Below are positions 10,035 to 53,336 of a DNA stretch of 64,000 nt, piece after piece. The translations under genes were made by a program, and so were the position numbers. This DNA comes from an uncultured Gemmatimonadales bacterium. Its GTDB lineage: Bacteria; Gemmatimonadota; Gemmatimonadetes; Gemmatimonadales; GWC2-71-9. Within the stretch, counting starts at the first letter, position 1. Every line of letters starts with the position of its first letter. Below the pieces are notes generated by a model that saw nothing but the letters and a program-made list of their open reading frames with translations, was not told the DNA's origin and made no database searches. Where the stretch lies: contig CAWCFX010000004.1 in assembly GCA_963795085.1 (NCBI GenBank), forward strand, positions 431,738 through 495,737, in the 5' to 3' direction.

Positions 10035-12584
10035 ATGAGCGAACGAATGACCCTTCCGGTGCTCCCGCTGCGCGAGGTGGTGCTGTTTCCCGGCGTCACC
10101 GCGCCGATCGGCGCCGGCCGGCCCGCGACGCTCCGCGCGATCGAGGCCGCCCTGGCGAGCCCGGACAAGCTGATATTCGCTGTTTCCCAGCGGCAAAACG
10201 TGGAGGTCGTGAATCCCGAGGTGCTCTATACCATCGGGACCGTGGCGCGGATTGGCCAGATGCAGCGCGGCCTGGCCGGCATGCAGCTCCTGATCCACGG
10301 CGAGAAGCGCGGCATCGCCATGCACTACAGCGACAAGGACGGCTACCTCCAGACCATCGTGCGGGAAGCCGAAGAGATGCCGCCGCTCAACCTGGAAGAT
10401 CCTGCCTTCGTGGCCCTCTATCGCGAGGCCCGCAGCCGGGCCGGCGAGCTGGGCCAGAAATCCGGTCTCCCCGAAGAGGTGGTGCAGCAGGTCCTGGCCG
10501 GGGTCAACGAGCCCGGCAAGTTCGCCGACCTGATCGCCGGGTACATCGACATCACCCCCGCCCAGCGGCAGATGCTGCTGGAGACCCTCTCGGTCGAAGA
10601 GCGGCTCCGCCGGGTGCTGGTGCATGTGCAGCGGCAGATCAGCGTGCTGGACGCCCAGGAAGACATCAAGTCGCAGGTCCAGGAAGAGCTGGGCGAGCGG
10701 CAGCGGGAGATGTTCCTCCGGGAGCAGCTCAAGACCATCCGGCGGGAACTGGGCGAGGACGACGATCGCGACGACCTCGAGGAGCTCCGGACCAAGCTGA
10801 ACGACCTGGAACTGCCGGAAGCGGCCCGGAAGGAAGTGGACCGCGAGATGGGCCGGCTCTCCCGGATCGGCCGCGAGTCCATGGAGTCGCAGGTCATCCG
10901 CACCTTCCTCGAGAACATCGCGGAACTGCCCTGGAGCACCCGGAGCGATGAGCACCTGTCGATCCCCGAGGCCTCCCGCATCCTGGATGAGGATCACTAC
11001 GCTCTCGGTGACGTGAAAGACCGGGTGCTGGAGTTCCTCTCGGTGCGCCAGCTGCGGATGCAGCAGCAGAAGGACGAAGACGAGAAGGCGGCCGCCGAGG
11101 AGGCGAAGGCGGAGCAGAAGGAGGCTGAAATTGCCGCCGGCGAATCGACCGACACGCCGATCGCCACGGCCACGGTGCCGGCGCCCAACAAGCCGATCCC
11201 CGGTAATGAAGATGACAAGGCGGCCCGGGGCCCTATCCTGCTCTTCGTCGGTCCCCCCGGTGTCGGCAAGACTTCGGTGGCCAAGTCCATCGCCCGCGCC
11301 ATGGGCCGGAAGTACGTCCGCATCTCGCTGGGCGGTGCCCGCGACGAGGCCGATATCCGCGGCCACCGGCGTACCTACGTCGGCGCCATGCCCGGGCGGA
11401 TCATCGCCGGCATGAAGCAGGCCGGCACCAAGAATCCCGTCTTCCTGCTGGACGAGGTGGACAAGCTGGGCGTCTCCTTCCAGGGCGATCCGGCCAGCGC
11501 GCTGCTCGAGGTACTGGACCCGGCCCAGAACGACTCGTTCACCGACCACTACCTCGGCGTCCCGTTCGACCTGAGTGAAGTGCTCTTCATCTGCACCGCG
11601 AATTTCATCCAGAACATTCCGGGTCCGCTGCTGGACCGGATGGAAAACGTGGAGTTCGCCGGCTATACCGAACGGGAGAAGCTGCACATCGCCCGGAACT
11701 ACCTGGTCCCCCGCCAGTTCGCCGAGAACGGGGTCACCGCCGAGAACCTGGTGTTGACCGATGGGGCGATCAGCGAAGTGATCACGCGGTACACCCGCGA
11801 GGCTGGCGTCCGCCAGCTGGAGCGGGAACTGGGCAAGCTGGCCCGGAAGGTCGCCCGCAAGATCGCCGCGAAGGAGCTGGAACGCATCGAGGTTGACCGG
11901 GAGCAGGTGGACGATCTCCTGGGCCGGCCCCGGGTCCATCCCGAGGTCGCCTCCCGCGAGGACCAGGTGGGCGTCTCCACCGGGATGTACTACACCCCCA
12001 CGGGCGGCGACATCATGTTCGTCGAGGCCAGCACCATGCGCGGCAAGGGTGAACTGGTGCTGACTGGCCAGCTGGGCGAAGTCATGAAGGAATCCGCCCG
12101 GGCGGCGTGGACCTACGCGCGCTCCCACGCGGCTGGCCTGCACATCAAGGACGAGATGTTCGACCGGGACGTGCATATCCACGTGCCCGCCGGCGCGATC
12201 CCCAAGGAGGGCCCGTCCGCCGGCGTCGCGATGGCCTCGGCCCTGGTATCCGCGTTGTCGGGCCGGCCGGTGCGCCATGATATCGCCATGACCGGCGAGA
12301 TCACATTGCGCGGACGGGTGCTGCCCATCGGGGGAGTGAAGGAGAAAGTCCTGGGAGCGGTACGCGCCGGGATCCACCGGGTGCTGATCCCGAAGGACAA
12401 CGAGGCCGACCTGGAAGACCTCCCCCAGGAGGTCCTCGACAAGCTCGAGGTGCACCTGGTGCAGGAACTGGGCGAGGTGCTGGCCGTGACGCTCCGGGGC
12501 GCCTCGTTCAAGGAGGGCAAACTGCTCTTCGGCGACGAAAACCCGCGGGACGTGGCTCCCCTGTCCGTTGGGTTTCATCACTAG
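10035..12584 (+). CDS. lon: ATP-dependent protease La (Lon)
   Basis: LON N-domain LPVLPLREVVLFPG, Walker A GPPGVGKT, Walker B LLDEVDK, catalytic Ser in PKEGPSAG and Lys in IGGVKEK. Confidence 0.97.
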   Translation: MSERMTLPVLPLREVVLFPGVTAPIGAGRPATLRAIEAALASPDKLIFAVSQRQNVEVVNPEVLYTIGTVARIGQMQRGLAGMQLLIHGEKRGIAMHYSDKDGYLQTIVREAEEMPPLNLEDPAFVALYREARSRAGELGQKSGLPEEVVQQVLAGVNEPGKFADLIAGYIDITPAQRQMLLETLSVEERLRRVLVHVQRQISVLDAQEDIKSQVQEELGERQREMFLREQLKTIRRELGEDDDRDDLEELRTKLNDLELPEAARKEVDREMGRLSRIGRESMESQVIRTFLENIAELPWSTRSDEHLSIPEASRILDEDHYALGDVKDRVLEFLSVRQLRMQQQKDEDEKAAAEEAKAEQKEAEIAAGESTDTPIATATVPAPNKPIPGNEDDKAARGPILLFVGPPGVGKTSVAKSIARAMGRKYVRISLGGARDEADIRGHRRTYVGAMPGRIIAGMKQAGTKNPVFLLDEVDKLGVSFQGDPASALLEVLDPAQNDSFTDHYLGVPFDLSEVLFICTANFIQNIPGPLLDRMENVEFAGYTEREKLHIARNYLVPRQFAENGVTAENLVLTDGAISEVITRYTREAGVRQLERELGKLARKVARKIAAKELERIEVDREQVDDLLGRPRVHPEVASREDQVGVSTGMYYTPTGGDIMFVEASTMRGKGELVLTGQLGEVMKESARAAWTYARSHAAGLHIKDEMFDRDVHIHVPAGAIPKEGPSAGVAMASALVSALSGRPVRHDIAMTGEITLRGRVLPIGGVKEKVLGAVRAGIHRVLIPKDNEADLEDLPQEVLDKLEVHLVQELGEVLAVTLRGASFKEGKLLFGDENPRDVAPLSVGFHH

Positions 12585-33179: not shown

Positions 33180-33404
33180 ATGACGGTGGACGGGTCGCTC
33201 GCCGCCGCCTTGGCCGACCGCTACCGCATCGAGCGGGCCGCGACTCACGTCGCTGCTCGGCACGCCATCGCTTCGCGATTCCGCCTGTTCGAGAATCCTT
33301 CGGGCGGGAATTTCCGAAATAGATGGACTCACCAAGTGAAGTCGCTCCGCGACGTTGTGCCGAGCAGCGACGTAAATCGTGATTGCGGCGAGGTGGATGA
33401 ATGA
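33180..33404 (+). pseudogene. Kinase 5' stub A read through palindromic element copy 1 (74 aa ORF)
   Basis: MTVDGSLAAALADRYRIER followed by element-derived sequence. The stop overlaps the K2 start. Confidence 0.75.
33238..33382. mobile_element. Palindromic REPIN/MITE-like element, copy 1 (diverged)
   Basis: Arms CCGCGACTCACGTCGCTGCTCGGCAC and GTGCCGAGCAGCGACGTAAATCGTGA. Flanked by a perfect 27-bp direct repeat at 33211-33237 and 33432-33458. Mobility is inferred. Confidence 0.7.
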
Positions 33405-35719
33405 CCACCGCGGAGCGCCTTGCCCAGGCCCTGGCCGACCGCTACCGCATCGAGCGGGAGCTGGGCGCCGGCGGCATGGCTACCGTGTACCTGGCCCACG
33501 ACCTCCGCCACGACCGAAAGGTCGCCATCAAGGTCCTCCGGCCCGAGCTGGCCGCCGTGATCGGGGCGGAGCGGTTTCTCGCCGAGATCAGGGTGACGGC
33601 CAACCTGCAGCATCCCAACCTGCTGCCGCTCTTCGACTCGGGCGCGGCCGGGAGCTTTCTCTATTATGTAATGCCCTTTGTCGAGGGCGAAACGCTGCGC
33701 CACCGGCTGGAGCGGGAGCGGCAGCTCCCGGTGGAGGAAGTCGTTCGCATCGTGACGCTGCTGTCGGGGGCGCTGGACTATGCCCACGCGCACGGAGTCA
33801 TCCACCGTGACTTGAAACCGGAGAACATCCTGCTCCAGGCCGGCCAGCCGGTGATCGCCGATTTCGGCATCGCGCTGGCCGTGGCCCAGGCCGGCGGCGC
33901 TCGGGTCACCGAGACCGGTCTCTCCCTCGGCACCCCGCACTACATGAGCCCGGAACAGGCGGCGGGGGAACGGGAGATCACGGCGCACTCGGACCAGTAC
34001 TCATTGGCGGCGGTGACGTACGAGCTGCTGAGCGGCGAGCCCCCGCACACCGGGCCCACGGCGCAGGTTATCGTGGCCCGCCTGATGACGGAGCGACCGC
34101 GCCGTCTCCGGGCGACCCGCTCGGCGGTGCCGCCGAGCGTTGATGCCGCGGTCGCTCGGGCGCTGAACAAGACGCCGGCGGATCGCTTCCCGTCCTGCGG
34201 CGCCTTTGCCCAGGCCATGGTGGCCCGGGCAACCCGGCGCCGGGTGGCCGGGTTCCTGGCTGCCGCCGCGCTCGCCGGGCTGGCGCTGACCGCTGCAGCC
34301 CTGTTTCTCCGGGGCCGTGAGCCGGCGGCGAGCGGCGGCGCGACACAATCGCTCGCCGTCCTTCCGTTGACCAACCTGAGCGGCGACCCGGCGGACGATT
34401 ACTTCGGGATCGGCCTCGCGGAAGAGATGACCCGTGCCATCGCCCAGACTGGTGTCCGGGTGATCGGGCGGGTCAGTGCAGGGGCGCTGCAGGCCCGGGG
34501 TCTCGACGAGCGCGCAATCGCGGAGGAACTGGGGGTCACCTCCCTCCTCACCGGTACGGTCCAGCGCTCCTCCGGCCAGGTGCGGATCAGCGTCACCCTG
34601 GTGTCGGCCAGTGATGGCGCTGTCCGCTGGAGCGAGCGGTACGACCGGCCCGTGGCCAACGTGTTCGCCGTGCAGGACGAGATCGCCGGCACCGTGGCCT
34701 CAACCCTGCTCGGCTCACTGAACCGCCGGGCCACCCCGGCTCGCCAGGCGGAGACGACCGACCCCGAGGCCCACGCCCTTTTCCTCCAGGGGCAGGTGCT
34801 CTTCAACCGGCGGGGCGCGGCCAACCTGCGCCAGGCGATCGTCCTCTTCGAGCGCGCCGCGGCGCGCGATCCAGGCTATGCCCGGGCCCAGGCGTCGCTG
34901 GCGATGGCGCAAGCCGTCCTCCCGGCCTACGTGGTGGACAGCACCCCGGAGATTCTCGCCAGCGCGGTCGCGGCGGCCGAGCGGGCCATCGCCATGGACT
35001 CGACCATCCCCGAGTCGTATACCGCGCTGGGCTACGGGTATTCGCTGCTGGGACAATTGCGCCGGGCCGAGCTCAACTTCCGTCGTTCGCTGGCGCTCGA
35101 TTCAACCGTATCCACGACTTGGGGATGGTATTCGCTGCTCTCCAGCCGGCTGGGCGAGTTCCGGGAGGCCCAGGCCCAGGTGGCGCGGGGGCGCGAGCTG
35201 GAGCCGGCCTCCATGATCGCCCGGATCTGGGAAGCCCAGATCCTCCATGCCGAGGGCCGGTTTGCCGAGGCCGATTCGCTGGCCAGCGCCACCATGGCCA
35301 TGGACTCGACGTTCCTGCTGGCCTGGACCTGGCGGGCCAACGCCCTGATGGCCATGGGGCAGACGGCGCTCGCCGTGTCGCTGCTGGAGCGCCAGGTGGC
35401 GAAGCTGCCGCCCGTGGGTCGGCCCGAGCAGGCGCATGGCCAGCTCGCCTATGCCTACGCCATCGCCGGCAGAATCCCCGAGGCGCGCGCGATGCTCCGG
35501 ACGATCCGGGCGAGAAACGGCGGCGACCTTCCCGCCTTCGGTGCCGTGGCCGCGACGCTGGAAGAGCTGGGCGACCACGAGGAGGCCGTGGAGGTCCTGG
35601 GCCGGGCGATCAGCCGGAGCGACACCTGGACCGTCCAGTTCCCCCGGGTGGCGCAATATGCCCGGCTGCGGCGGGACCCGCGCGCGGCGGCCATGCTCGA
35701 CCGACTGGCGGTGCGGTAA
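33401..35719 (+). CDS. Array kinase K2: Ser/Thr kinase-TM-TolB-N-like domain-TPR
   Basis: Kinase motifs (HRDLKPEN), SLAVLPLTNLSGDPADDYFGIGLAEE, and TPR-like helices. Confidence 0.93.
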   Translation: MTTAERLAQALADRYRIERELGAGGMATVYLAHDLRHDRKVAIKVLRPELAAVIGAERFLAEIRVTANLQHPNLLPLFDSGAAGSFLYYVMPFVEGETLRHRLERERQLPVEEVVRIVTLLSGALDYAHAHGVIHRDLKPENILLQAGQPVIADFGIALAVAQAGGARVTETGLSLGTPHYMSPEQAAGEREITAHSDQYSLAAVTYELLSGEPPHTGPTAQVIVARLMTERPRRLRATRSAVPPSVDAAVARALNKTPADRFPSCGAFAQAMVARATRRRVAGFLAAAALAGLALTAAALFLRGREPAASGGATQSLAVLPLTNLSGDPADDYFGIGLAEEMTRAIAQTGVRVIGRVSAGALQARGLDERAIAEELGVTSLLTGTVQRSSGQVRISVTLVSASDGAVRWSERYDRPVANVFAVQDEIAGTVASTLLGSLNRRATPARQAETTDPEAHALFLQGQVLFNRRGAANLRQAIVLFERAAARDPGYARAQASLAMAQAVLPAYVVDSTPEILASAVAAAERAIAMDSTIPESYTALGYGYSLLGQLRRAELNFRRSLALDSTVSTTWGWYSLLSSRLGEFREAQAQVARGRELEPASMIARIWEAQILHAEGRFAEADSLASATMAMDSTFLLAWTWRANALMAMGQTALAVSLLERQVAKLPPVGRPEQAHGQLAYAYAIAGRIPEARAMLRTIRARNGGDLPAFGAVAATLEELGDHEEAVEVLGRAISRSDTWTVQFPRVAQYARLRRDPRAAAMLDRLAVR

Positions 35720-35720
35720 G

Positions 35721-38324
35721 ATGAGCGATCCGATGTCCCGCCTCGCGACCGGCCTGGCCGACCGTTACCGCGTCGAGCGGGAGTTGGGGCAGGGCGGCAT
35801 GGCCACCGTGTATCTCGCTGAAGATCTGAAGCACCGTCGCAACGTCGCGATCAAGGTGCTGCATCCCGATCTGGGCGCGGCACTCGGCGCGGAGCGCTTT
35901 CTCTCGGAGATCAGCACCACGGCTCGCCTGCAGCACCCGCACATCCTCCCACTGCTCGATAGCGGCGAGGCCGACGGCCTTCTCTACTATGTGATGCCGC
36001 TCGTCACCGGGGAGACCTTGCGCTCGCGGCTCGAGCGGGAACGGCAGCTGCCGGTCCAGGATGCAGTTCGCATCGCCCGCGAGGTGGCCGATGCCCTCGG
36101 CTGCGCTCACGCCCAGGGCGTCATCCATCGCGATATCAAGCCGGAGAACATCCTGCTCCAGGGGGGCCACGCGCTGGTCGCGGATTTCGGAATTGCCCTC
36201 GCCGTTCAGGAGGCGGGCGGGCAGCGACTGACGCAGACGGGACTCTCGCTCGGCACGCCGCAGTACATGTCACCCGAACAGGCGATGGGCGAGAAGCAGG
36301 TTGACCGGCGCAGTGATATCTACGCGCTCGGCGCTGTGACGTACGAGATGCTCATCGGGGAAGCGCCGTTCACCGGACCAACGGTGCAGTCTATTGTGGC
36401 CCGGATCATGACCGAAGAACCCCGTCACCTGGGAGTACAGAGAAAGGCAGTGCCTGGGCCGGTCGAGCATGCGGTGCTGCGCGCTCTCGAGAAGCTGCCC
36501 GCCGACCGGTGGGCGAGCGCGGAAGCCTTTGCCGCGGCACTCGAGGAGCAGCCTGGCCCGGCGCCGCGCGCGTCCGCTCCCCGGGCCATTGCGCCGGCAC
36601 CACGGGTCCGCCTGGTGATCGGGGTGGCCATCCTCGCGCTCGGTCTGCTTGCCGCCGCATGGTACGTAAGCCGGGCACCGGGCAACCCATCGGCTAAGCC
36701 CCGCATCGTGGTGTTACCGGCCGTGAATCTGGCCGGCGCGGAGCAGGCCTACCTCGCCGATGGTATCGCGGAGGAGATCAACAACCGGCTGGTGGGATTG
36801 ACCGGGGTCGAAGTCATTGGCCGCACCAGTGCCGAGCGATACCGGGGCACTCAGCTCACGCCGCGCCAGATCGGCGCCGAGCTCGACGCCAACTTCATCC
36901 TGGCGCTGCGCATCGGCATGGAGGGCCCGGCGGACGGCCAACGCATCAGGGTGAGTGCCGAGCTCCTCAATGCGGCAAACGAGACCCAGGTATGGGGGAA
37001 GACGTACCAGGCTCGGGCCACCGCGGACAACTTCGCGATGCAGGGTGAGATCGCCACCCAGGTGGCGGAGGAAATGGGTGTGACCCTGATCTCCGGAGAC
37101 AGCGCCCGAGTCGCGGAGCGTCCCACCGAGAACCAGGAAGCCTATGACGACTACCTCAGGGCCACTGGAATTCTCCGCGAGAAGAGCTCGATCACCCAGT
37201 TCTTCGATGCCGCCCGGTACCTGCAGCGCGCGGTGGACCGGGATCCCGGGTTCGCCCAGGCGTGGGCGGCCCTGGGATACGCGCACGCTGAGATCTACTG
37301 GTTCTGGGGCGACCACTCGGCGGCTCGCCAGGAGTTGGCCCGGGCTGCCGGCGAGCGTGCTCGCGCGCTGGCGCCGAATGCCGCCGAAACCCACTTCGCC
37401 CTCGGCGTGATCGCCTACCATGGACACCTCGATTTTCCCCGTGCCCTCGAGCATCTCAACGCCGCGATCGCCGCCAAGCCGGGCCAGGCCCGCTTCCTGG
37501 AGTTCGTCGCCTACGTCCAGCGGCGTTCAGGCGACCTGGAAGCGGCGCTGGCAAACGCCCGGCGGGCGCTCGCGCTTGATCCCCGGAACGTACGGATCCT
37601 GGGTGACGCCATGGGCCAGACGCTGGTGTACCTGGGACACTCAGCCGAAGCGCTGAGGTCTGCCGCCCGGGCGACCGATCTCGATCCCGAGGACTGGCAA
37701 CCGCACCATACCCTGATGCTGGCACACACGCAGATGGGAGATCTCGCCGGGGCAGAGGCCGCCGCCCGGGCCACCATGGTACGGCCGGGAGTGCAGGGCT
37801 TCCTGGTGGACCGGCCGAGGGACCTGGCCTGGGTCATAGGACGCCTTCCGCTGGAAGAGCAAGTCACCCTCGCGCACACCTATCCTCCTCTCAGTCCCGA
37901 GATATCTGACACGGCGATGTATTTCCTGGTACACGCGGAGATCCTGAGCAGCGCGGGACTCGACGGCCGAGTGAAATATGAACGTGCAGCCGAGCATATC
38001 GAGCGGCTCATTGCCAGCCAGCCGAATGAAGGTTGGTACTACGACCGCCTGGGCACGGCCTACCGGGGACTGGGGCGAGTGGATGAGGCCATTCGCGCGG
38101 GACGCCGGGCGGTCGAGCTGCTGGCACCGCTCGACCGATTTGAAGGACCCGAGGTCTCCCTCAACCTCGCCCAGAGTTACCTGGCTGCCGGGGACCAGGG
38201 GCAGGCCGCTGCACTGGCGCGGGCGTTCATCCGGTCTTTGCCGGGCAACCGGCTCCTTCTCAAGCACGATCCTCAATACGCCGCCTTACGCGATCTGCCC
38301 CAGGTGAGGGAGCTGCTGCGATGA
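35721..38324 (+). CDS. Array kinase K3: Ser/Thr kinase-TM-TolB-N-like domain-TPR
   Basis: ATG one nt after the K2 stop (MSDPMSRLATGLADRY), IVVLPAVNL...YLADGIAEEI, and TPRs. Confidence 0.93.
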   Translation: MSDPMSRLATGLADRYRVERELGQGGMATVYLAEDLKHRRNVAIKVLHPDLGAALGAERFLSEISTTARLQHPHILPLLDSGEADGLLYYVMPLVTGETLRSRLERERQLPVQDAVRIAREVADALGCAHAQGVIHRDIKPENILLQGGHALVADFGIALAVQEAGGQRLTQTGLSLGTPQYMSPEQAMGEKQVDRRSDIYALGAVTYEMLIGEAPFTGPTVQSIVARIMTEEPRHLGVQRKAVPGPVEHAVLRALEKLPADRWASAEAFAAALEEQPGPAPRASAPRAIAPAPRVRLVIGVAILALGLLAAAWYVSRAPGNPSAKPRIVVLPAVNLAGAEQAYLADGIAEEINNRLVGLTGVEVIGRTSAERYRGTQLTPRQIGAELDANFILALRIGMEGPADGQRIRVSAELLNAANETQVWGKTYQARATADNFAMQGEIATQVAEEMGVTLISGDSARVAERPTENQEAYDDYLRATGILREKSSITQFFDAARYLQRAVDRDPGFAQAWAALGYAHAEIYWFWGDHSAARQELARAAGERARALAPNAAETHFALGVIAYHGHLDFPRALEHLNAAIAAKPGQARFLEFVAYVQRRSGDLEAALANARRALALDPRNVRILGDAMGQTLVYLGHSAEALRSAARATDLDPEDWQPHHTLMLAHTQMGDLAGAEAAARATMVRPGVQGFLVDRPRDLAWVIGRLPLEEQVTLAHTYPPLSPEISDTAMYFLVHAEILSSAGLDGRVKYERAAEHIERLIASQPNEGWYYDRLGTAYRGLGRVDEAIRAGRRAVELLAPLDRFEGPEVSLNLAQSYLAAGDQGQAAALARAFIRSLPGNRLLLKHDPQYAALRDLPQVRELLR

Positions 38325-41035
38325 GCGGTGCTCTGGACCGACTGTCATCCGCCCTCGCCGAGCGCTACCGTATCGAGCAGGAACTCGGCGCCGGCGGCAT
38401 GGCCACCGTGTACCTGGCCCACGATGTCCGCCACGACCGCAAGGTCGCCATCAAGGTCCTCCGCCCCGAGCTGGCCGCGGTGATCGGCGCCGAGCGCTTC
38501 CTCCGAGAGATCAAGACGGTCGCCAACCTGCAGCATCCCCACATCCTCGGCCTGATCGACTCCGGCGAGGTAAACGGCACCGCCTATTACGTCATGCCCT
38601 TCGTCGAGGGCGAGTCGCTCCGCGACCGGCTGAGCCGGGAGAAACAGTTGCCGGTCCCCCTCGCCGTCCGCTGGGCCAGCGAGATCGCGGCGGCGCTCGA
38701 CTACGCTCACCGCCACGGCGTGATCCATCGGGACATCAAGCCGGAGAACATCCTGCTCCACGACGGCTCGGCGCTCGTCGCCGACTTCGGCATCGCGCTG
38801 GCGGTGACCTCCGTCGGCGGGAGCCGGATGACCGAGACCGGGATGTCCCTGGGCACCCCCCACTACATGAGCCCCGAGCAGGCGATGGGGGAGCGGGAGA
38901 TCGGCCCGGCCAGCGATGTCTATGCCCTTGGCGCGGTGACCTTCGAAATGCTGGCCGGCGAGCCACCTTTCACCGGTCCTACCGCCCAGGCCATCGTTGC
39001 CCGGGTGATGACCGCGGAGCCGCCCGACCTGGCATCATTGCGGAAGACAGTGCCGGAGCACGTCGCGGCAGCAGTTGATACCGCGCTACAGAAGCTTCCC
39101 GCCGACCGGTTTCCCACCGCGACCGCATTTGCCCAGGCGCTGGGAGCCCCGGGGCCCACGACCGGCCGGCGGGTGCGCGCGGTGGTCGGCCCGGTCCGCC
39201 GGTCGGTCCCGCTTTTCCTTGCCATCGGGCTCGCCGCGCTCGCGCTGGTGCTGGGCGGACTGGCGGCCGTGCTGGCCTTGGGCGCCAGGCGCGGAGACCC
39301 AGTCGGGGTCCGGGTGGCCGCCCGGCTTCCCGCCGGCCAGGAATTCCTCGCCGGTCGGGCCCTCGGCGTGGCAATTCCTCCCGACGGCTCCGGCGTCCTT
39401 TATCTGGGGCCCGGCGTCGGCCGGCGGCTGCAGTACTGGTTCCGCCAATGGGACCGGATCGGCGCCGAGCGGCTGACCCGCTCGGTCGATGAAGGGTGCT
39501 GCGCCAGCTACTCTCCCTCCGGCGACACGATCGCGTACCTCTCTGCCCCCCGCTCACTCAACCTGCTCCCGCTCAACGGCGGGCAGGCGACCACGCTGTC
39601 CGATTCCGGGTTGCTTTCGGTGACCGACTGGTGGGCCGGCCTCGACTGGTCGAAGGATGGCTGGCTCTACGCCGGCGGCTCCGAAGGCCTGCTCAGGATT
39701 GATCCCCGAACCGGGGCCCGCGAGATCGTGGCCCGGCACGACTCGGCCCGTGGCGACCTGGCCTTCCTCTGGCCCCAGGTACTGCCGGGGGGCAAGGGCG
39801 CGGTGGTGACGGTAGTCGGGCGACAGGCTCCGATCGATCCCGAGCGCGCCTCGATCGGGATCGTCGATTTCAGCACGGGACGGGTCCGGGTGATCCAGCA
39901 GGGCATCCGTGCGATTTACGCTTCCACGGGGCACCTGCTCGTAGTCAAGCCCAACGGCGTGCTCTGGGCGGTGCCCTTCGACCCGGGGTCCTTCGACGTG
40001 CGGGGGACCGAGCGCGAGTTGCGCGATACGCTCGCGGTCCGCACCGGGAGCGCCGGCCCGGGCACCGTCGATCTCGCGCTGGACCGCCACGGAACCCTGG
40101 TCTACGTGGCGGGCGGCATCGAGTCGTTCCGGGCGGTCATGGTCGATCGTTCCGGCGCCGTGCGCCCCCTGTCCGATGATGTCGCCGCCCTCCTGCTGGA
40201 CAGCCCCGCCCTTTCGTCCGACGGCCGCCGGCTGGCGATCGGGATGCGCGCCGAGGACCGCACGTCCCAGATCTGGGTCCATGCCATGGGCGATGGCGCC
40301 ATGGGCCGGTTGACCTTCGACGGTCTCCTGAACATTCGGCCGCGCTGGCGTCCGGGAACCGGCACCCTGAGCTACCTTGGCTTTGCCGGGATCGGCAAGA
40401 TCGACTTCCACGTGTTCGAGCGCGACGCCGGCGGACGGGGCGGCGTGCGCCGGATCTTCACGGGCGACCCGCGAAGCGTGGGGTCCCACGCCTGGTCGCC
40501 CGACGGACGGTGGCTGATTTTCCGGACCGACGACCAGGCCGCCGGCAACGGCGACATTCTCGCCATCCGTCCCGGGGTGGACACCGTGCCCCGCGCCCTG
40601 GTGGCCACCCCCGCCGAGGAAATGGGCCCGGCCGTATCTCCGGATGGCCGGTGGCTGGCGTATACCTCCAATGAAACCGGCCGCCGGGAGGTGTACGTCC
40701 GTCCCTTCCCCGCGACCGACGAGGCGCGCTTCCTGATCTCGCCCAGCGGCGGCATGACCCCGGTCTGGGCCCGGAACGGGCGAGAGCTGTTCTACCTGGA
40801 CGCGTCCGGCAACATGGTCGCCGTCCCGGTCGAAGGCGGCGACTCGTTTCGCTCCGGCTCGCCCGAGGTCCTGTTCCCGGCGACCCAATATTTCACGATG
40901 CCCTACCATCCGCAGTATGACGTGACGCCCGATGGCCAGCGCTTCGTGATGCTGAGCGCCCGGTCGGAAAACCTCGGGCTGGTCCTGGTGACCGGATTTC
41001 TTGCCGACCTGGAGCGACGGATGGAAACACAATGA
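38321..41035 (+). CDS. Array kinase K4: Ser/Thr kinase-TM-PD40/TolB-like beta-propeller
   Basis: Kinase motifs, TM, and SPDGRWLAYTSNETGRREVYVRPFP. Confidence 0.93.
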   Translation: MSGALDRLSSALAERYRIEQELGAGGMATVYLAHDVRHDRKVAIKVLRPELAAVIGAERFLREIKTVANLQHPHILGLIDSGEVNGTAYYVMPFVEGESLRDRLSREKQLPVPLAVRWASEIAAALDYAHRHGVIHRDIKPENILLHDGSALVADFGIALAVTSVGGSRMTETGMSLGTPHYMSPEQAMGEREIGPASDVYALGAVTFEMLAGEPPFTGPTAQAIVARVMTAEPPDLASLRKTVPEHVAAAVDTALQKLPADRFPTATAFAQALGAPGPTTGRRVRAVVGPVRRSVPLFLAIGLAALALVLGGLAAVLALGARRGDPVGVRVAARLPAGQEFLAGRALGVAIPPDGSGVLYLGPGVGRRLQYWFRQWDRIGAERLTRSVDEGCCASYSPSGDTIAYLSAPRSLNLLPLNGGQATTLSDSGLLSVTDWWAGLDWSKDGWLYAGGSEGLLRIDPRTGAREIVARHDSARGDLAFLWPQVLPGGKGAVVTVVGRQAPIDPERASIGIVDFSTGRVRVIQQGIRAIYASTGHLLVVKPNGVLWAVPFDPGSFDVRGTERELRDTLAVRTGSAGPGTVDLALDRHGTLVYVAGGIESFRAVMVDRSGAVRPLSDDVAALLLDSPALSSDGRRLAIGMRAEDRTSQIWVHAMGDGAMGRLTFDGLLNIRPRWRPGTGTLSYLGFAGIGKIDFHVFERDAGGRGGVRRIFTGDPRSVGSHAWSPDGRWLIFRTDDQAAGNGDILAIRPGVDTVPRALVATPAEEMGPAVSPDGRWLAYTSNETGRREVYVRPFPATDEARFLISPSGGMTPVWARNGRELFYLDASGNMVAVPVEGGDSFRSGSPEVLFPATQYFTMPYHPQYDVTPDGQRFVMLSARSENLGLVLVTGFLADLERRMETQ

Positions 41036-42231
41036 AAGGGGGCCTCGTGCGGGTCCCATACCTTCTCATGCTGCTGACCGGTTGCTCGGCGTCCCGGGAG
41101 GCGGCGGCTCCACCCGCGGAAGGCAGCGACTATCTCTACCTCTGGACCGCCGGCGCCGACTCGGCGGCCCCCGACTTCCTCGCCGTCTACGACGTGCGGC
41201 CTGACAGCGGGCGATACGGCGCGCTGGTGACGACCGTGCCGGTCGGGAGCGGAAACAACGGCCCGCATCACAGCGAGCACGAGCTGGCGGCCGACCGGCA
41301 GCTGTTCGTCAACGGGTATGGGAGCGGTAAGAGCTTCATCTTCGACCTCCGCGATGGCGCCACCCCGAAGCTGGTTGGCGAGTTCGGCGACCAGGCGGGG
41401 ATGAGCCACCCGCACAGCTTCCTCCGCCTGCCCGGCGGCAACGTGCTGGCCACATATCAGATGAGGCACGATTCCGCGGGCATGGGGCCGGGCGGCCTGG
41501 TCGAGATGACCCCGGCCGGCGCCGTGGTCCGTTCCAGCCCGGCGACGGGACCAGGCGTCCCGCCGGGCCTCCGTGTGTATTCCGGCGCCGTGGTGCCGGC
41601 CCTCGACCGGATCGTCACCTCGACGACCGACATGGACGAGAAGAACCCGTACCTGGCCGACCAGGTCCAGGTCTGGCGGCTTTCGACCCTGGAACTCCTG
41701 CACACGATCACGCTTCCGCCGGGCCCGCTCGGCGACGAGAGTCACTACACCGCGGAACCCCGGCTTCTTTCCGACGGCCGGACCGTCATGGTCTCCACCT
41801 TCAATTGCGGGCTGTACCTGCTCGAAGGCCTTGACGGTGACGAGCCCGCCGGCCGCCTGGTGGCGACCTTCCCCCGGAAGCCGGACAGTTATTGCGCCAT
41901 CCCGGTGGTGGCGGGGCGGTTCTGGCTGACGACCGTGCCTGCGGTTCCCGGCGTGGTGAGCCTCGACATCTCGGACCCGGCCAACCCGCGGGAAGCCGGG
42001 CGGCTGGCGCTGGGCGCGGAGGACATTCCCCACTGGATCGCGCTGGAGCCCAACGGCCGGCGGGTGGTGATGACCGGGTATGGCGCGATGAAGAACCGGG
42101 TGCTGATGGCGACGTTCGATTCCGCGACCGGCAGGCTGGCGCTGGACCAGCGATTCCGCCCGGTGGATGCCTCGACTGCCGGCTTCTCCGTCGACGGCAT
42201 CCCCCACGGCGCGGTGTTCAGCCGGCCATGA
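41032..42231 (+). CDS. Lipoprotein, selenium-binding protein (SBP56)-like beta-propeller
   Basis: Lipobox LTGC; PDFLAVYDVRPDSGRYG...GPHH resembles the SBP56 N-terminus; HPHS, PHW and PHG His motifs. Confidence 0.7.
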   Translation: MKGGLVRVPYLLMLLTGCSASREAAAPPAEGSDYLYLWTAGADSAAPDFLAVYDVRPDSGRYGALVTTVPVGSGNNGPHHSEHELAADRQLFVNGYGSGKSFIFDLRDGATPKLVGEFGDQAGMSHPHSFLRLPGGNVLATYQMRHDSAGMGPGGLVEMTPAGAVVRSSPATGPGVPPGLRVYSGAVVPALDRIVTSTTDMDEKNPYLADQVQVWRLSTLELLHTITLPPGPLGDESHYTAEPRLLSDGRTVMVSTFNCGLYLLEGLDGDEPAGRLVATFPRKPDSYCAIPVVAGRFWLTTVPAVPGVVSLDISDPANPREAGRLALGAEDIPHWIALEPNGRRVVMTGYGAMKNRVLMATFDSATGRLALDQRFRPVDASTAGFSVDGIPHGAVFSRP

Positions 42232-42292
42232 CGGGCGGGCGCGGAATGGCCCCCTGTCAGTCCACCGCCCTGGCGGTGCCGAACGGCGAAAT

Positions 42293-42321
42293 TTGACAAT
42301 GTGACCATATATGGTCATAAT
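42293..42321 (+). promoter_or_regulatory. Sigma70 promoter with overlapping palindromic operator for the TA operon
   Basis: TTGACA (42293-42298), 17 bp, CATAAT (42316-42321). Perfect 16-bp palindrome TGACCATATATGGTCA at 42302-42317. Confidence 0.85.
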
Positions 42322-42327
42322 GAGGCC

Positions 42328-42597
42328 ATGAAAACCCGAGCGGAAAAGCAGGTCAAGGTCGCCGAGCTGAAGGCTCGGCTCAGCGCGTATCTCAAGGCCG
42401 TCCGCCGGGGGGAACCGGTCACCGTCTGCGACCGGGATACCCCGATCGCCCGGCTGGTGCCCTACCGGCCAGCGGGTGAACCGCTCGCCGTCCGGGAGCC
42501 GGTGCGTGCGCTGGACGCCGTCACCCTGCCCGCGCCGCTGAAGCGCCCGGTGGACAGCCTGGCGGTTCTGCTCGAGGGACGGCAGCCATCACGGTGA
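42328..42597 (+). CDS. Phd/YefM-family antitoxin
   Basis: VKVAELKARLSAYLKAVRRGEPVTVCDRDTPIARLVP; upstream of and overlapping a PIN-domain gene. Confidence 0.92.
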   Translation: MKTRAEKQVKVAELKARLSAYLKAVRRGEPVTVCDRDTPIARLVPYRPAGEPLAVREPVRALDAVTLPAPLKRPVDSLAVLLEGRQPSR

Positions 42598-43013
42598 TTG
42601 CCTATCTCGACGCCTCCGTGGTCCTCCGCCTGGTGCTGGGAGAGCCGAACCGGCTGGCCGAGTGGGCTGCGGTAACGGCCGCGGTGGCCAGCGCCCTGAC
42701 CGAGGTCGAATCGCTCCGGACGCTGGACCGGCTGGTCCGCCTCGGCGCGCTGCCCGAGGCGGAGCTGGTGCCCCGGCGCGAGGCGGTCTATCGGATGCTG
42801 GAAGCCGCCGAAGTCGTCGACGTTGGCCGGCCGGTGCTCCGCCGCGCCTCCGATCCCTTTCCGACTCCACTGGGAACCCTGGATGCCATTCACCTTGCGA
42901 CCGCCCTGGCCTGGCGGGACATTCGGAACCTGGAGGTGACCATGGCCACGCACGACCTGGCACTGGCGGCGGCATCGCGCGCCGTGGGCCTGCCGGTGGT
43001 GGGCGCGCCATGA
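42594..43013 (+). CDS. vapC: PIN-domain (VapC-family) toxin
   Basis: YLDASVV, TEVE, LGTLDAIHLATA and THD acidic active-site motifs; GTGA overlap with the antitoxin. Confidence 0.92.
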   Translation: MIAYLDASVVLRLVLGEPNRLAEWAAVTAAVASALTEVESLRTLDRLVRLGALPEAELVPRREAVYRMLEAAEVVDVGRPVLRRASDPFPTPLGTLDAIHLATALAWRDIRNLEVTMATHDLALAAASRAVGLPVVGAP

Positions 43014-43044
43014 CCATCCTGCGACGAATCTCGCCGGAGGCGCC

Positions 43045-45654
<2,610 letters not shown>

Positions 45655-45747
45655 CGGGCCTGGTGTGCCATCCACCGCGCGCCAACACCCTGACAAAGGA
45701 CACGGACCCAGGATGCGATCGATGGTCGATCGGCCTGGCCTGACGCA

Positions 45748-48428
<2,681 letters not shown>

Positions 48429-48432
<4 letters not shown>

Positions 48433-48649
48433 CCGGGGCCCGCGATCGACTCGCCGCTGCCCTCGCCGACCGCTACCGCATCGAGCGGGCCGCGACTTAC
48501 GTCGCTGCTCGGCCCGGCGTCGCTTCGCGACTGCAGCGAGAACATTCTGCTCCGGCCAGACTGCAATCACCCTGCCATGGACCCAGGCGCACCGAATCGC
48601 GCAGCGATGGTGTGCCGAGCAGCGACGGAAGTCGCGGAACGATCAGGCA

Positions 48650-48653
<4 letters not shown>
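48429..48653 (+). pseudogene. Kinase 5' stub B read through palindromic element copy 2 (74 aa ORF)
   Basis: MTGARDRLAAALADRYRIER followed by AATYVAAR...; ATGA overlaps at both ends. Confidence 0.75.
48490..48637. mobile_element. Palindromic REPIN/MITE-like element, copy 2
   Basis: Inverted arms match at 23/24 bp (48490-48513, 48614-48637), with internal mini-hairpins. Direct repeat matches at 30/31 bp (48459-48489 and 48680-48710). Confidence 0.75.
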
Positions 48654-51291
<2,638 letters not shown>

Positions 51292-51292
<1 letters not shown>

Positions 51293-51507
51293 TGGTTCCC
51301 CCGGCTCTCGCCACCACCCTGGCCGATCGCTACCGCCTCGAACAGGCCGCGACTTACGTCGCTGCTCGGCACGGCGTCGCTTCGCGACTGCAGCGAGAAC
51401 ATTCTGCTCCGGCAAGACTGCAATCAACCTGTCATGGACCCAGGCGCACCAACTCGCGCAGCGATGGTGTGCCGAGCCGCGACGGAAGTCGCGGGAATAG
51501 GCAATGA
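51292..51507 (+). pseudogene. Kinase 5' stub C read through palindromic element copy 3 (71 aa ORF)
   Basis: GTG start overlapping the K7 TAG; MVPPALATTLADRYRLEQ followed by AATYVAAR...; the stop overlaps the K8 ATG. Confidence 0.75.
51347..51494. mobile_element. Palindromic REPIN/MITE-like element, copy 3
   Basis: Near-identical to copy 2. Arms at 51347-51372 and 51469-51494. Direct repeat matches at 26/30 bp (51317-51346 and 51535-51564). Confidence 0.75.
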
Positions 51508-53336
51508 CGGAAGCCCCCGTCCGTCTCGCCGCCGCCCTGGCCGATCGCTATCGACTCGAGCGGGAGCTGGGCGCCGGCGGCATGGCCACGGTGTATCTTG
51601 CGCACGACATCAAGCACGACCGGAAGGTGGCCATCAAGGTGCTCCGGCCCGAGCTGGCCGCGGTGATCGGCGCCGAGCGATTCCTCCGCGAGATCAAGAC
51701 CATCGCCAACCTGCAGCATCCCCATATCCTCGGCCTGATCGATTCCGGCAAAGTGAACGGCACGGCGTACTACGTGATGCCATTCGTGGAAGGGGAATCC
51801 CTTCGCGACCGGCTGAATCGGGAAAAGCAGCTCCCCATCACTGACGCGGTCCGGCTGGCCACCGAGGTGGCCGGCGCGCTCGGCTACGCCCACCGGCATG
51901 GCGTGATCCACCGCGACATCAAGCCGGAAAACATCTTGCTGCATGATGGCTTGGCCCTTTTGGCGGATTTCGGCATCGCCCTGGCCGTGAGCAGCGCCGG
52001 AGGCCGGATGACCGAGACCGGGATGAGCCTCGGCACGCCCCACTACATGTCGCCGGAGCAGGCGATGGGTGAACGGGAGATCGGCCCCACGAGCGACGTG
52101 TATGCGCTCGGTGTGGTTACGTACGAGATGCTCACGGGGGAACCACCCTTTTCCGGTCCGACGGCGCAAGCCATCTTTGCAAAGGTGATGACCGAGAAGC
52201 CGGCGCCGATCATGCTGCGGCGTGATACCGTTCCGGAAACCATCGCACGCGCGGTCGTCACGGCGCTGCAGAAGATTCCCGCCGATCGGTTTCGCAACAC
52301 GGCGGAGTTCATCGCGGCGCTGACGGCTACTTCCGCGTCGCCGGGTGGACCCGGCGCCCATACGCGAACCGTCTCGCTGGTAACCGGCAGCTTCGTGATC
52401 ACGGAAGCGCACTGCAGACTGCTTTCCCGCGCGTCGTTCGATCCCCGGCTCATCGGGTCCGAGCTTCAGTATTTCGATAATGGCGTCGCCTCTCCCGTTC
52501 TGCTGTGTTTCATCCCGGCCTTTGGCCGCGGGTCAGACCAGAACATGGAGATGCTCTCGCGGATTGGCTATCGGGCGGTCGTTCCCACCTTGCGCGGGTT
52601 CGAGCTGGACACGCCGTGGCGCCCCACGCTCACCATCGACGATCACATCGTGCTGATCCGCGAGTTTCTCCGTGAGCTTGCGACCCAGCTCGAGCCGGCG
52701 CTGATTATCGTCGCCGGTTTCTCCACCGCCGCGGATATTGCGCTGCGGTTTGCCGCGGCCCCCGATCCTGCCGCGACCCTTCGGGTAGACGGGTGCCTGA
52801 CCCTGGGGGGAAACCTGGCGCCGAGTACGTGCTTCTTTACCAGCGTGCTGGCTTCAATGAAAAATGACGACGACGATACCTTGCTGGCCGCCCTTCGGCA
52901 GGTCAGTGACACGGCCACGTCGCTCGACGAATGGGTGAACATCTGCCAGTACGCCCTCAGGATCGCGTCGACCTTTCGGAACCAGTTGGGCGTGGTGCGG
53001 ACCTTTGCGAGTGGGCTTTGGGCGCCTTTCGCCACCGAGGAGCTCACCCCCTTCGCGAACTGGTACCGGGCGGCGATGGCCAACGGTTGCCGGCTGAGTT
53101 GCGTGTTCGAGGACACGCCCATGTACCGTGGGCTCGTGCGGGAGTTGCAACTGCGAAACCTGGACGAGGGACTCCTGGGAGAACGGTATGAAGAAGGTTC
53201 GATAATTAATGAGGCCGGGACTTCCCACTTCGATCTCGTCGAGCCGGGGCGTGTGGCCCGACACGTTGATGCGCTCGTCACCCGCCTGCGCGGCAACAGC
53301 GGGGCCCGCCCCAGCTCGGCCGGCTCCCCGCGATAG
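51504..53336 (+). CDS. Array kinase K8: Ser/Thr kinase fused to an alpha/beta-hydrolase-like domain (no TM)
   Basis: Kinase motifs, then LLCFIPAFG, YRAVVPTLRGF, elbow-like AGFSTAA and a late His (TSHFD). Confidence 0.88.
   Translation: MTEAPVRLAAALADRYRLERELGAGGMATVYLAHDIKHDRKVAIKVLRPELAAVIGAERFLREIKTIANLQHPHILGLIDSGKVNGTAYYVMPFVEGESLRDRLNREKQLPITDAVRLATEVAGALGYAHRHGVIHRDIKPENILLHDGLALLADFGIALAVSSAGGRMTETGMSLGTPHYMSPEQAMGEREIGPTSDVYALGVVTYEMLTGEPPFSGPTAQAIFAKVMTEKPAPIMLRRDTVPETIARAVVTALQKIPADRFRNTAEFIAALTATSASPGGPGAHTRTVSLVTGSFVITEAHCRLLSRASFDPRLIGSELQYFDNGVASPVLLCFIPAFGRGSDQNMEMLSRIGYRAVVPTLRGFELDTPWRPTLTIDDHIVLIREFLRELATQLEPALIIVAGFSTAADIALRFAAAPDPAATLRVDGCLTLGGNLAPSTCFFTSVLASMKNDDDDTLLAALRQVSDTATSLDEWVNICQYALRIASTFRNQLGVVRTFASGLWAPFATEELTPFANWYRAAMANGCRLSCVFEDTPMYRGLVRELQLRNLDEGLLGERYEEGSIINEAGTSHFDLVEPGRVARHVDALVTRLRGNSGARPSSAGSPR

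Follow-up and report, generated by a model that had tools for sequence, protein, structure and literature searches.

Integrative elements often restore the gene that they enter by supplying a replacement gene end, such as the tRNA 3' ends at attP, and tandem arrays of paralogues undergo concerted evolution and unequal crossing-over. A further system, REPIN/RAYT, was reportedly treated by Nunvar et al. in 2010. Passages in Bertels and Rainey (2011, PMC3116915) and Corneloup et al. (2021, PMC8266576) describe doublets of repetitive extragenic palindromes (REPs), the REPINs, that are mobilised by REP-associated tyrosine transposases (RAYTs), and in parts of the latter text REPINs are regarded as extragenic passengers whose dissemination is still unsettled. 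Parts of a review of miniature inverted-repeat transposable elements (PMC10969869) describe Rickettsia palindromic elements (RPEs) as in-frame insertions in protein-coding genes. Here, we analyse a stretch of 64,000 nucleotides (the window; C4:431738-495737) of a soil Gemmatimonadales genome (G000; 3.89 Mb, 6 contigs), in which three units (U1, U2 and U3) carry a REPIN-type hairpin at one exact nucleotide behind the start of a Ser/Thr kinase gene and in front of a second, intact start. Our favoured reading, to which we give an even chance, is that one founding junction has been re-contextualised by homologous recombination at the conserved kinase core, with the relic of the first kinase start kept as a bridge open reading frame (ORF).

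At least 11 co-directional Ser/Thr kinase genes are arranged head to tail between window positions 30512 and 63998, many of them with ATGA stop/start overlaps. Their products begin with M-x(6-10)-L-A-D-R-Y-R-[IL]-E-R-E-L-G-x-G-G-M-A-T-V-Y, their kinase domains (first ~800 nt) are 70-97% identical to one another, and the sensor halves that form their C-termini (TPR, PD40 beta-propeller and further types) show no relation. This pattern indicates modular genes in which one domain would have evolved in concert. In the three units, the kinase frame breaks at 33238, 48490 and 51347, directly after ...GAGCGGG (GAACAGG in U3). Past the break lie a hairpin of 144-148 bp and a spacer of 9-19 nt; a fresh ATG then opens an intact kinase that has a second copy of the ADRYRxER core. 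The coordinates in the window are:

33180..33237, plus strand: U1 relic kinase start, ATG, 19 codons, then the G that opens the following codon; its last bases are GAGCGGG
33180..33404, plus strand: U1 bridge ORF, 74 codons, the only open frame across the hairpin; its TGA overlaps the ATG of K2 (ATGA)
33238..33381, no strand: U1 REPIN hairpin, arms at about 33241-33287 and 33333-33379, right terminus degenerate
33382-33400: U1 spacer, with the new ATG at 33401
33401..35719, plus strand: kinase K2, Pkinase domain and TPR C-terminal half, with its own start and the second core
48429..48489, plus strand: U2 relic kinase start, its ATG overlapping the TGA stop of K6 (ATGA)
48429..48653, plus strand: U2 bridge ORF, 74 codons, ending in ATGA on the start codon of K7
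48490..48637, no strand: U2 REPIN hairpin, 148 nt, termini CCGCGAC...GTCGCGG, 95.3% identical to the U3 hairpin
48638-48649: U2 spacer, with the new ATG at 48650
48650..51292, plus strand: kinase K7, Pkinase domain and PD40 beta-propeller
51292..51346, plus strand: U3 relic kinase start, its GTG overlapping the TAG stop of K7 by one base, core degenerate (..LEQ)
51292..51507, plus strand: U3 bridge ORF, 71 codons, ending in ATGA on the start codon of K8
51347..51494, no strand: U3 REPIN hairpin, 148 nt
51495-51503: U3 spacer, with the new ATG at 51504
51504..53336, plus strand: kinase K8, Pkinase domain and a short C-terminal half without Pfam match

The hairpins open with CCGCGACTnnCGTCGCTGCTCGGC... 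straight after the kinase core. In the repeat search, their inverted arms measure 41-48 nt, are 74-85% complementary and lie 45-66 nt apart, and the direct repeats of U1, U2 and U3 have periods of 221, 221 and 218. Spacers of 19, 12 and 9 nt follow the respective right arms, and 10-11 codons separate the new ATG from the second core. A whole unit is 200-223 bp long, with the bridge ORF as its sole content. A preliminary description, made from the letters of the stretch alone, had located all three units and their periods exactly as found here, and its repeat identities (27/27, 30/31 and 26/30) agree with the 1, 1 and 4 differences that we count between left and right core over 28 nt. It had likewise pointed to the N-terminus common to K7 and K8: the first 24 nt after the new ATG are identical in both genes (24/24) and encode MTEAPVRL, despite kinase domains that pair with K6 in the case of K7 and with K4 in the case of K8. 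Four public soil DNA runs from one study contain only 6-16% of the sampled words, in contigs of ~150 nt. One of these contigs, X3 (51399-51549), bears out U3 on its right side, and no joint skipping 218-221 nt is present in these sparse runs, which leave the left junctions uncovered. No RNA run was among those that contain the sequence.

The junction recurs beyond this genome. A junction pattern run with up to three mismatches on 401 genomes of the family was matched in three of them, namely G000 (three instances), G479 from the same genus (one) and G013 from another genus (one); the units of the latter two share the anatomy seen in G000. The G013 unit is situated at a contig end (G013:C47, 7.8 kb, stopping inside the unit), and this contig may be mis-binned from a genus closer to G000. 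Comparison of the 74-residue upstream ORF with two protein collections added six metagenome proteins (P0001, P0002, P0003, P0010, P0011 and P0013). All six show the break, with ...ADRY[R]xE[RL] passing directly into AAT[HYP][VL]AAR..., and each has its own N-terminus. In total, eleven junction instances are available, five of them with DNA, in which the upstream N-termini differ and the break is identical. That one exact nucleotide is used, as first reported for the window, holds in front of non-orthologous kinases (TPR, PD40 and unknown C-terminal halves in G000), and the unit is present in three genomes and six metagenome proteins. A profile of nine bridge-ORF proteins, compared with 401 genomes of the order, gave full-length matches only in G000 and G013; in three other genomes only its first 20 positions were matched, and these matches are ordinary kinase starts. 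The same-genus genome G424 (94% complete) contains no junction match.

Empty sites, which the preliminary description had proposed to look for in orthologous kinases, are present in the nearest relatives of the bearers. Here, a single core stands directly behind the start codon, and several of these starts overlap the previous stop codon. The C-terminal orthologue of K8 in G479 (60% identity) has an empty site with the N-terminus MTEALERL, close to MTEAPVRL. K2 matches a G013 gene at 80% identity over its C-terminal half; that gene has one core only, a similar N-terminus and another kinase domain. The preliminary description took the replacement N-terminus for a part of the element; the versions in K8 and K2 resemble native N-termini of orthologues without a unit, and they may not be element-borne. 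Separately, in G479 a kinase start near position 14397 of C450 (L141; ..ALADRYTIERELGRG) seemingly breaks soon after the core without a REP and may be a differently truncated kinase.

[quoted passage not shown] The RNA fold pairs both arms of the inverted doublet. The REP motif consists of a 5-bp stem (GCGAC-loop-GTCGC), followed by TGCTCGGCAC and a second small stem. Of 401 genomes sampled across the phylum, 15 contain its 20-base arm motif, in part as chance matches inside genes, and a scan of all species-representative genomes yielded 88 stretches, with 51 hits in 37 Gemmatimonad-labelled loci. In relatives, the motif appears as single copies, inverted doublets and tandem runs, mostly intergenic, and 11 of 95 REP loci include an IS200-like Y1_Tnp gene, which adjoins the REPs or is enclosed by two inverted ones. 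The Y1 transposase gene of L003 matches PF01797 in Pfam (E 3e-24), and in L038, L073 and L096 a Y1_Tnp gene is enclosed by inverted REPs of the same family as the unit hairpin; in L088, a RAYT gene neighbours the matching REP sub-type. The guess of a link to HUH/RAYT enzymes was thus right: in relatives, Y1 transposase genes are flanked by the REP family from which the arms come.

In G000 itself, this REP family flanks no RAYT gene. Across the whole 3.89-Mb genome (blastn), the hairpin is limited to the three units plus one solo arm; the genome-wide comparison proposed at the outset thereby gave a pattern that is not due to chance. With three doublets, all within ORFs, and a single solo arm, the element is neither repetitive nor extragenic in this genome. 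The solo arm (C4:773560-773605) lies outside the window in intergenic DNA downstream of an unrelated non-kinase gene, and neither a partner arm nor a transposase gene is found near it. Three IS200-like transposase genes exist (C3:370563, C1:1120130 and C4:546683), one intact and two broken, and all are located outside the window, where the cognate enzyme had been supposed to be. The window contains no IS200-like Y1 transposase gene, and neither does any unit or its surroundings hold one; this search covered Y1 transposases and not other recombinase families. The intact RAYT (C3:370410-370915, 166 aa) is flanked by a REP type other than that of the unit hairpin. In this region (C3:370410-371250, L114), it is preceded by three copies of a different small palindrome (TGTCGC-nAAA-GCGACC), which has 15 matches in the genome, seven of them clustered at C3 371038-379389 adjoining the RAYT; an eighth, at C3:363209, is positioned just upstream of another kinase gene.

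In G013 and G479, the REP type of the unit is seen only in the unit itself. The bearing genomes thus lack further copies of this REP type beyond the units and the solo arm, as well as a matching RAYT, which argues against ongoing transposition from a REPIN pool. Other genomes carry several copies of the same REP sub-type (L052, L060, L077 and L086), none in kinases. The REP family as a whole does not target kinases as had been proposed: a kinase is the flank in 2 of the 51 hits in Gemmatimonad-labelled loci (2 of 12 for the matching sub-type) and in none of seven metagenome REP loci, which were found with a flank-neutral REP pattern and yielded no extra units at the DNA level. All five kinase units with DNA have C(G/A)GG as their left flank; in non-kinase copies this flank is variable and mostly T-rich. 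In G479, a different REP-like hairpin (L130, G479:C222, ~11200-11245; ..GAATGAATTCGCTGCTCGGCAG..) lies immediately upstream of the relic start, so that REP-type hairpins accumulate at this kinase junction.

These distributions bear on the idea that the unit is a non-autonomous, site-specific cassette (REPIN, spacer, start and ~8 codons, with or without the core), placed after GAGCGGG by a RAYT-type or other enzyme and supplying a replacement 5' end, which we consider unlikely. As a REPIN-derived, gene-sparing element it would home to the ADRYRIER motif, either via RAYT cleavage at CGGG^ or via an element-borne homology arm, and would exchange the N-terminus and upstream coupling while the kinase stays active; this course of events, too, we consider unlikely. 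The identical junction nucleotide of 11 instances with different upstream N-termini, the empty sites in close relatives and the intact Y1 transposase gene in G000 are all in line with such a cassette, as is the new N-terminus common to K7 and K8 despite their different kinase domains. However, most REP copies of the same sub-type lie in intergenic DNA, where the left flanks are T-rich and not from kinases, the RAYT found in G000 is associated with the other REP type, and the unit is rare (the three family genomes named above). Single-strand transposition of the IS200/IS605 type leaves no long duplication and uses a right cleavage site close to the hairpin, whereas the units would require a right site ~70 nt from the hairpin together with a long duplication. 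In addition, among U1-type units (U1 and those of G013 and G479) only the REP arms are well conserved; spacers and new N-termini vary between copies about as much as the hairpin loops.

A target duplication had been read from variants that both repeats of a unit share. For four units, we set each left core against its partner on the right, over 28 nt, and against 82 further kinase cores. The own pairs differ at 1, 1, 4 and 4 positions, and 7-22 of the 82 other cores are as close or closer; a rough Fisher estimate combining the four ranks gives p ~0.07, which is not significant. The own repeats are thus not set apart from other kinase cores, because the core is too conserved across the kinase family for locus-specific variants to be significant, and this result does not favour a cassette that duplicates its target.

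Mosaicism of the kinase domains points in another direction. We have built a tree from 76 kinase-domain rows with the core columns removed; since array members share only their first ~800 nt, it is not an orthology tree, and the unique C-terminal halves served as orthology markers in its place. The five bearers need five changes on this tree, and a single clade is rejected (approximately unbiased test, p = 1e-6). In 60-nt windows, K6 and K7 are 73-100% identical (median 90%) from ~+40 to ~+800, and unrelated upstream of ~+40 and in the C-terminal 1.8 kb; from ~40 nt after the ATG, the kinase domain of K7 is ~93% identical to that of K6. To judge from this profile, whose 5' boundary is at the core, gene conversion, beginning at the core, has demonstrably homogenised the kinase domains of the array. 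U2 and U3 in turn are highly identical from the first hairpin base to 24 nt past the new ATG (~184 nt at 95%), with flanks that are 78-85% identical and unrelated DNA upstream. Their left cores differ at 5 of 28 positions, their right cores at 6 of 28, and the kinase domains behind are 82-88% identical. The sharp rise at the left end of the REPIN would also suit a cassette. On the right, this identity stops just where the K6-like tract of K7 sets in, and its right end therefore may reflect later conversion and not the end of an element. The preliminary description had offered a recombination site that builds or reshuffles the array as its second option. This fits better, in that domains are exchanged with a boundary at the core; such exchange also occurs without the hairpin (K6).

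Under the recombination reading, a founding event would have left a REPIN lodged behind a kinase 5' relic and ahead of the following kinase in the array, and the junction of ...GAGCGGG with CCGCGACT would most likely have arisen once. The relic core is a direct repeat of the core of every array kinase, which would enable homologous exchange, and gene conversion or unequal crossing-over could use the stretch encoding ADRYRIERELG as a short region of homology. Such an exchange would either copy the hairpin and downstream start into another kinase or replace the relic together with its upstream neighbour. Every recombinant would keep the same breakpoint, because the homology between kinase and relic ends exactly at the core/REPIN boundary, and would retain a locus-specific upstream N-terminus. 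The bridge ORF would read through the hairpin and stop in the ATGA of the kinase start.

The same lineage data can be set against a simpler history, in which one ancient unit-bearing kinase in an ancestor was passed on by vertical descent and whole-gene duplication, with later divergence and overwriting of kinase domains. Hairpin loops and spacers are strongly diverged between U1-type and U2-type units, left cores are decaying (AQAGRY in G479, LEQ in U3, IEL in P0010), and gene conversion of kinase domains could mimic polyphyly on the tree, all of which vertical descent would accommodate. Yet the C-terminal halves of the bearers are unrelated (TPR, PD40, no match), the upstream N-termini of U2 and U3 are each native to their place, where they join the stop codon of a different preceding gene, and most of the left cores have kept a perfect kinase-core sequence. 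This history would demand many losses, as illustrated by G424, which is of the same genus. The hairpins of U2 and U3 are also more alike than the kinase domains behind them, and the alignment of their flanks hints that the hairpin copies are younger than these genes. We regard vertical descent as rather improbable, more so than the cassette.

In same-genus genomes, the kinase domains are only 70-82% identical to those of G000, and synteny comparison shows rearranged arrays. In the window, the kinase array is interrupted by a 399-aa ORF (41032-42231) with a weak match to SBP56 (selenium-binding protein); it is kept at 73-76% DNA identity in two same-genus genomes and is a useful synteny marker. 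The TPR half of K2 (34361-35716) is 72-80% identical to genes on G013:C7 and G013:C236 (L143 and L148), thus in another genus, and reaches only ~35% identity with any sequence of four same-genus genomes. Such a distribution suggests that sensor modules were transferred horizontally or that contigs were mis-binned.

The bridge ORFs have 64-80 codons and begin at or beside the stop codon of the previous gene. Hairpin and spacer together measure 163, 160, 157 and 139 nt, each 1 mod 3, and 162 nt in G013; therefore the relic frame stops in ATGA in four of the five units with DNA. It is the sole open frame of the three in U1 and in the G479 unit, and U2 has all three open. Judging by their last residues, four of the six metagenome proteins would end compatibly with NNA-TGA, and two of the six would stop early like the G013 ORF. 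The 301-nt region of U2 folds at -143.1 kcal/mol (z = -2.66). As the bridge ORF ends in ATGA, translation of the downstream kinase could stay coupled across the hairpin, and the conserved frame suggests selection for a bridge ORF that would carry ribosomes through the hairpin and hand them to the kinase start.

A programmed translational device would use the same features differently, either as a T4 gene 60-like hop between the two cores or with the hairpin as an attenuator or RNA processing site that tunes each kinase. Identical or nearly identical cores surround the gap, the strong hairpin begins exactly at the point of divergence, and the frame is conserved in the four units mentioned. In the T4 gene 60 bypass, matched take-off and landing codons enclose a gap of ~50 nt, with a stop codon right after take-off. 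The units, in contrast, have no stop codon after the would-be take-off site, and their gap of 200-223 nt is, to our knowledge, several times that of any translational bypass. A normal ATG with ATGA overlap is the simpler route to the kinase. A scan revealed no promoter- or terminator-like site at the units, the region totals of 2 and 6 being at the level of shuffled sequence, and Rfam has no family there, its sole hit (E 0.12) being elsewhere and below threshold. We thus judge a translational device to be highly improbable. On anatomy alone, we also dropped three more candidates (self-splicing intron, integron attC site and invertible promoter switch), given the absence of core sites, a loop of 45-66 nt and the lack of an Rfam match.

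Several observations weigh against spread of the junction by recombination and a selected bridge ORF. No founder or intermediate, such as a REPIN upstream of a kinase without relic, has been found. The left homology of only ~28-37 nt is short for RecA-type exchange, and the sharp left edge of the U2/U3 identity is also expected of a transposed element. The hairpin seems to be accompanied by its spacer and new start wherever the upstream context differs: the ..VNS ends of P0001 and P0010 resemble the G013 spacer, and the start of K7 recurs base for base in K8. Such co-travel fits an element-borne 5' end equally well. With respect to the bridge ORF, the frame no longer holds in G013, nor probably in P0003 and P0013, the mod-3 counts are not independent, because the units share descent, and the instances from protein databases are skewed to long open frames.

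What sets the locus apart is the position of a REPIN within a leader ORF, between a relic and a live gene start and at the same nucleotide in at least 11 kinases. If recombination is the cause, the array would be a clear natural case of a 30-nt conserved coding motif fixing breakpoints, in which a heterologous insert hitch-hikes through a paralogue array and a bridge ORF would keep coupling across a strong hairpin. If homing is the cause, the unit would show a new means by which miniature elements can settle in coding DNA without harm. In addition, the locus documents the modular evolution of Gemmatimonadales sensor kinases, with shared kinase domains and unrelated sensor halves.

Compared with REPIN/RAYT systems, the units are alike in having two inverted REPs in a hairpin of ~145 nt, in a motif that flanks single Y1 transposase genes in relatives, and in a family with single REPs, doublets and tandem runs. 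They are unlike in their very low copy number in G000, in doublets that lie inside an ORF between duplicated gene starts and are not extragenic, in a RAYT that carries another REP type, and in the repetition of the same junction in paralogous genes. RPEs, as far as the review passages describe them, are the closest functional analogue, with a palindrome of ~150 bp in a translated frame and an intact host gene. However, an RPE is translated within the host protein and occurs in unrelated genes, whereas the units are read as part of a separate leader ORF, the kinase restarts behind them and a single gene family is concerned. Integrative elements share with the units a duplicated piece of the target gene that flanks the insert, and an intact target. 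The unit, by contrast, has no integrase and is too small for one, its duplicated piece is a 5' end and not a 3' end, and this piece may be native and not element-borne. Supplements aside, literature searches on REPIN/RAYT target sites and in-frame palindromic elements brought up no REPIN between duplicated gene starts or reused across paralogues, and no hitch-hiking of this kind. With concerted evolution, the locus shares the mosaic kinase domains, the exchange boundaries at the edges of conserved blocks and the reuse of breakpoints defined by homology; it differs in its heterologous hairpin and its relic start, which are carried along in the exchange. The hairpin thus belongs to a known class, the REPINs, and it is the placement that is unusual and probably driven by recombination.

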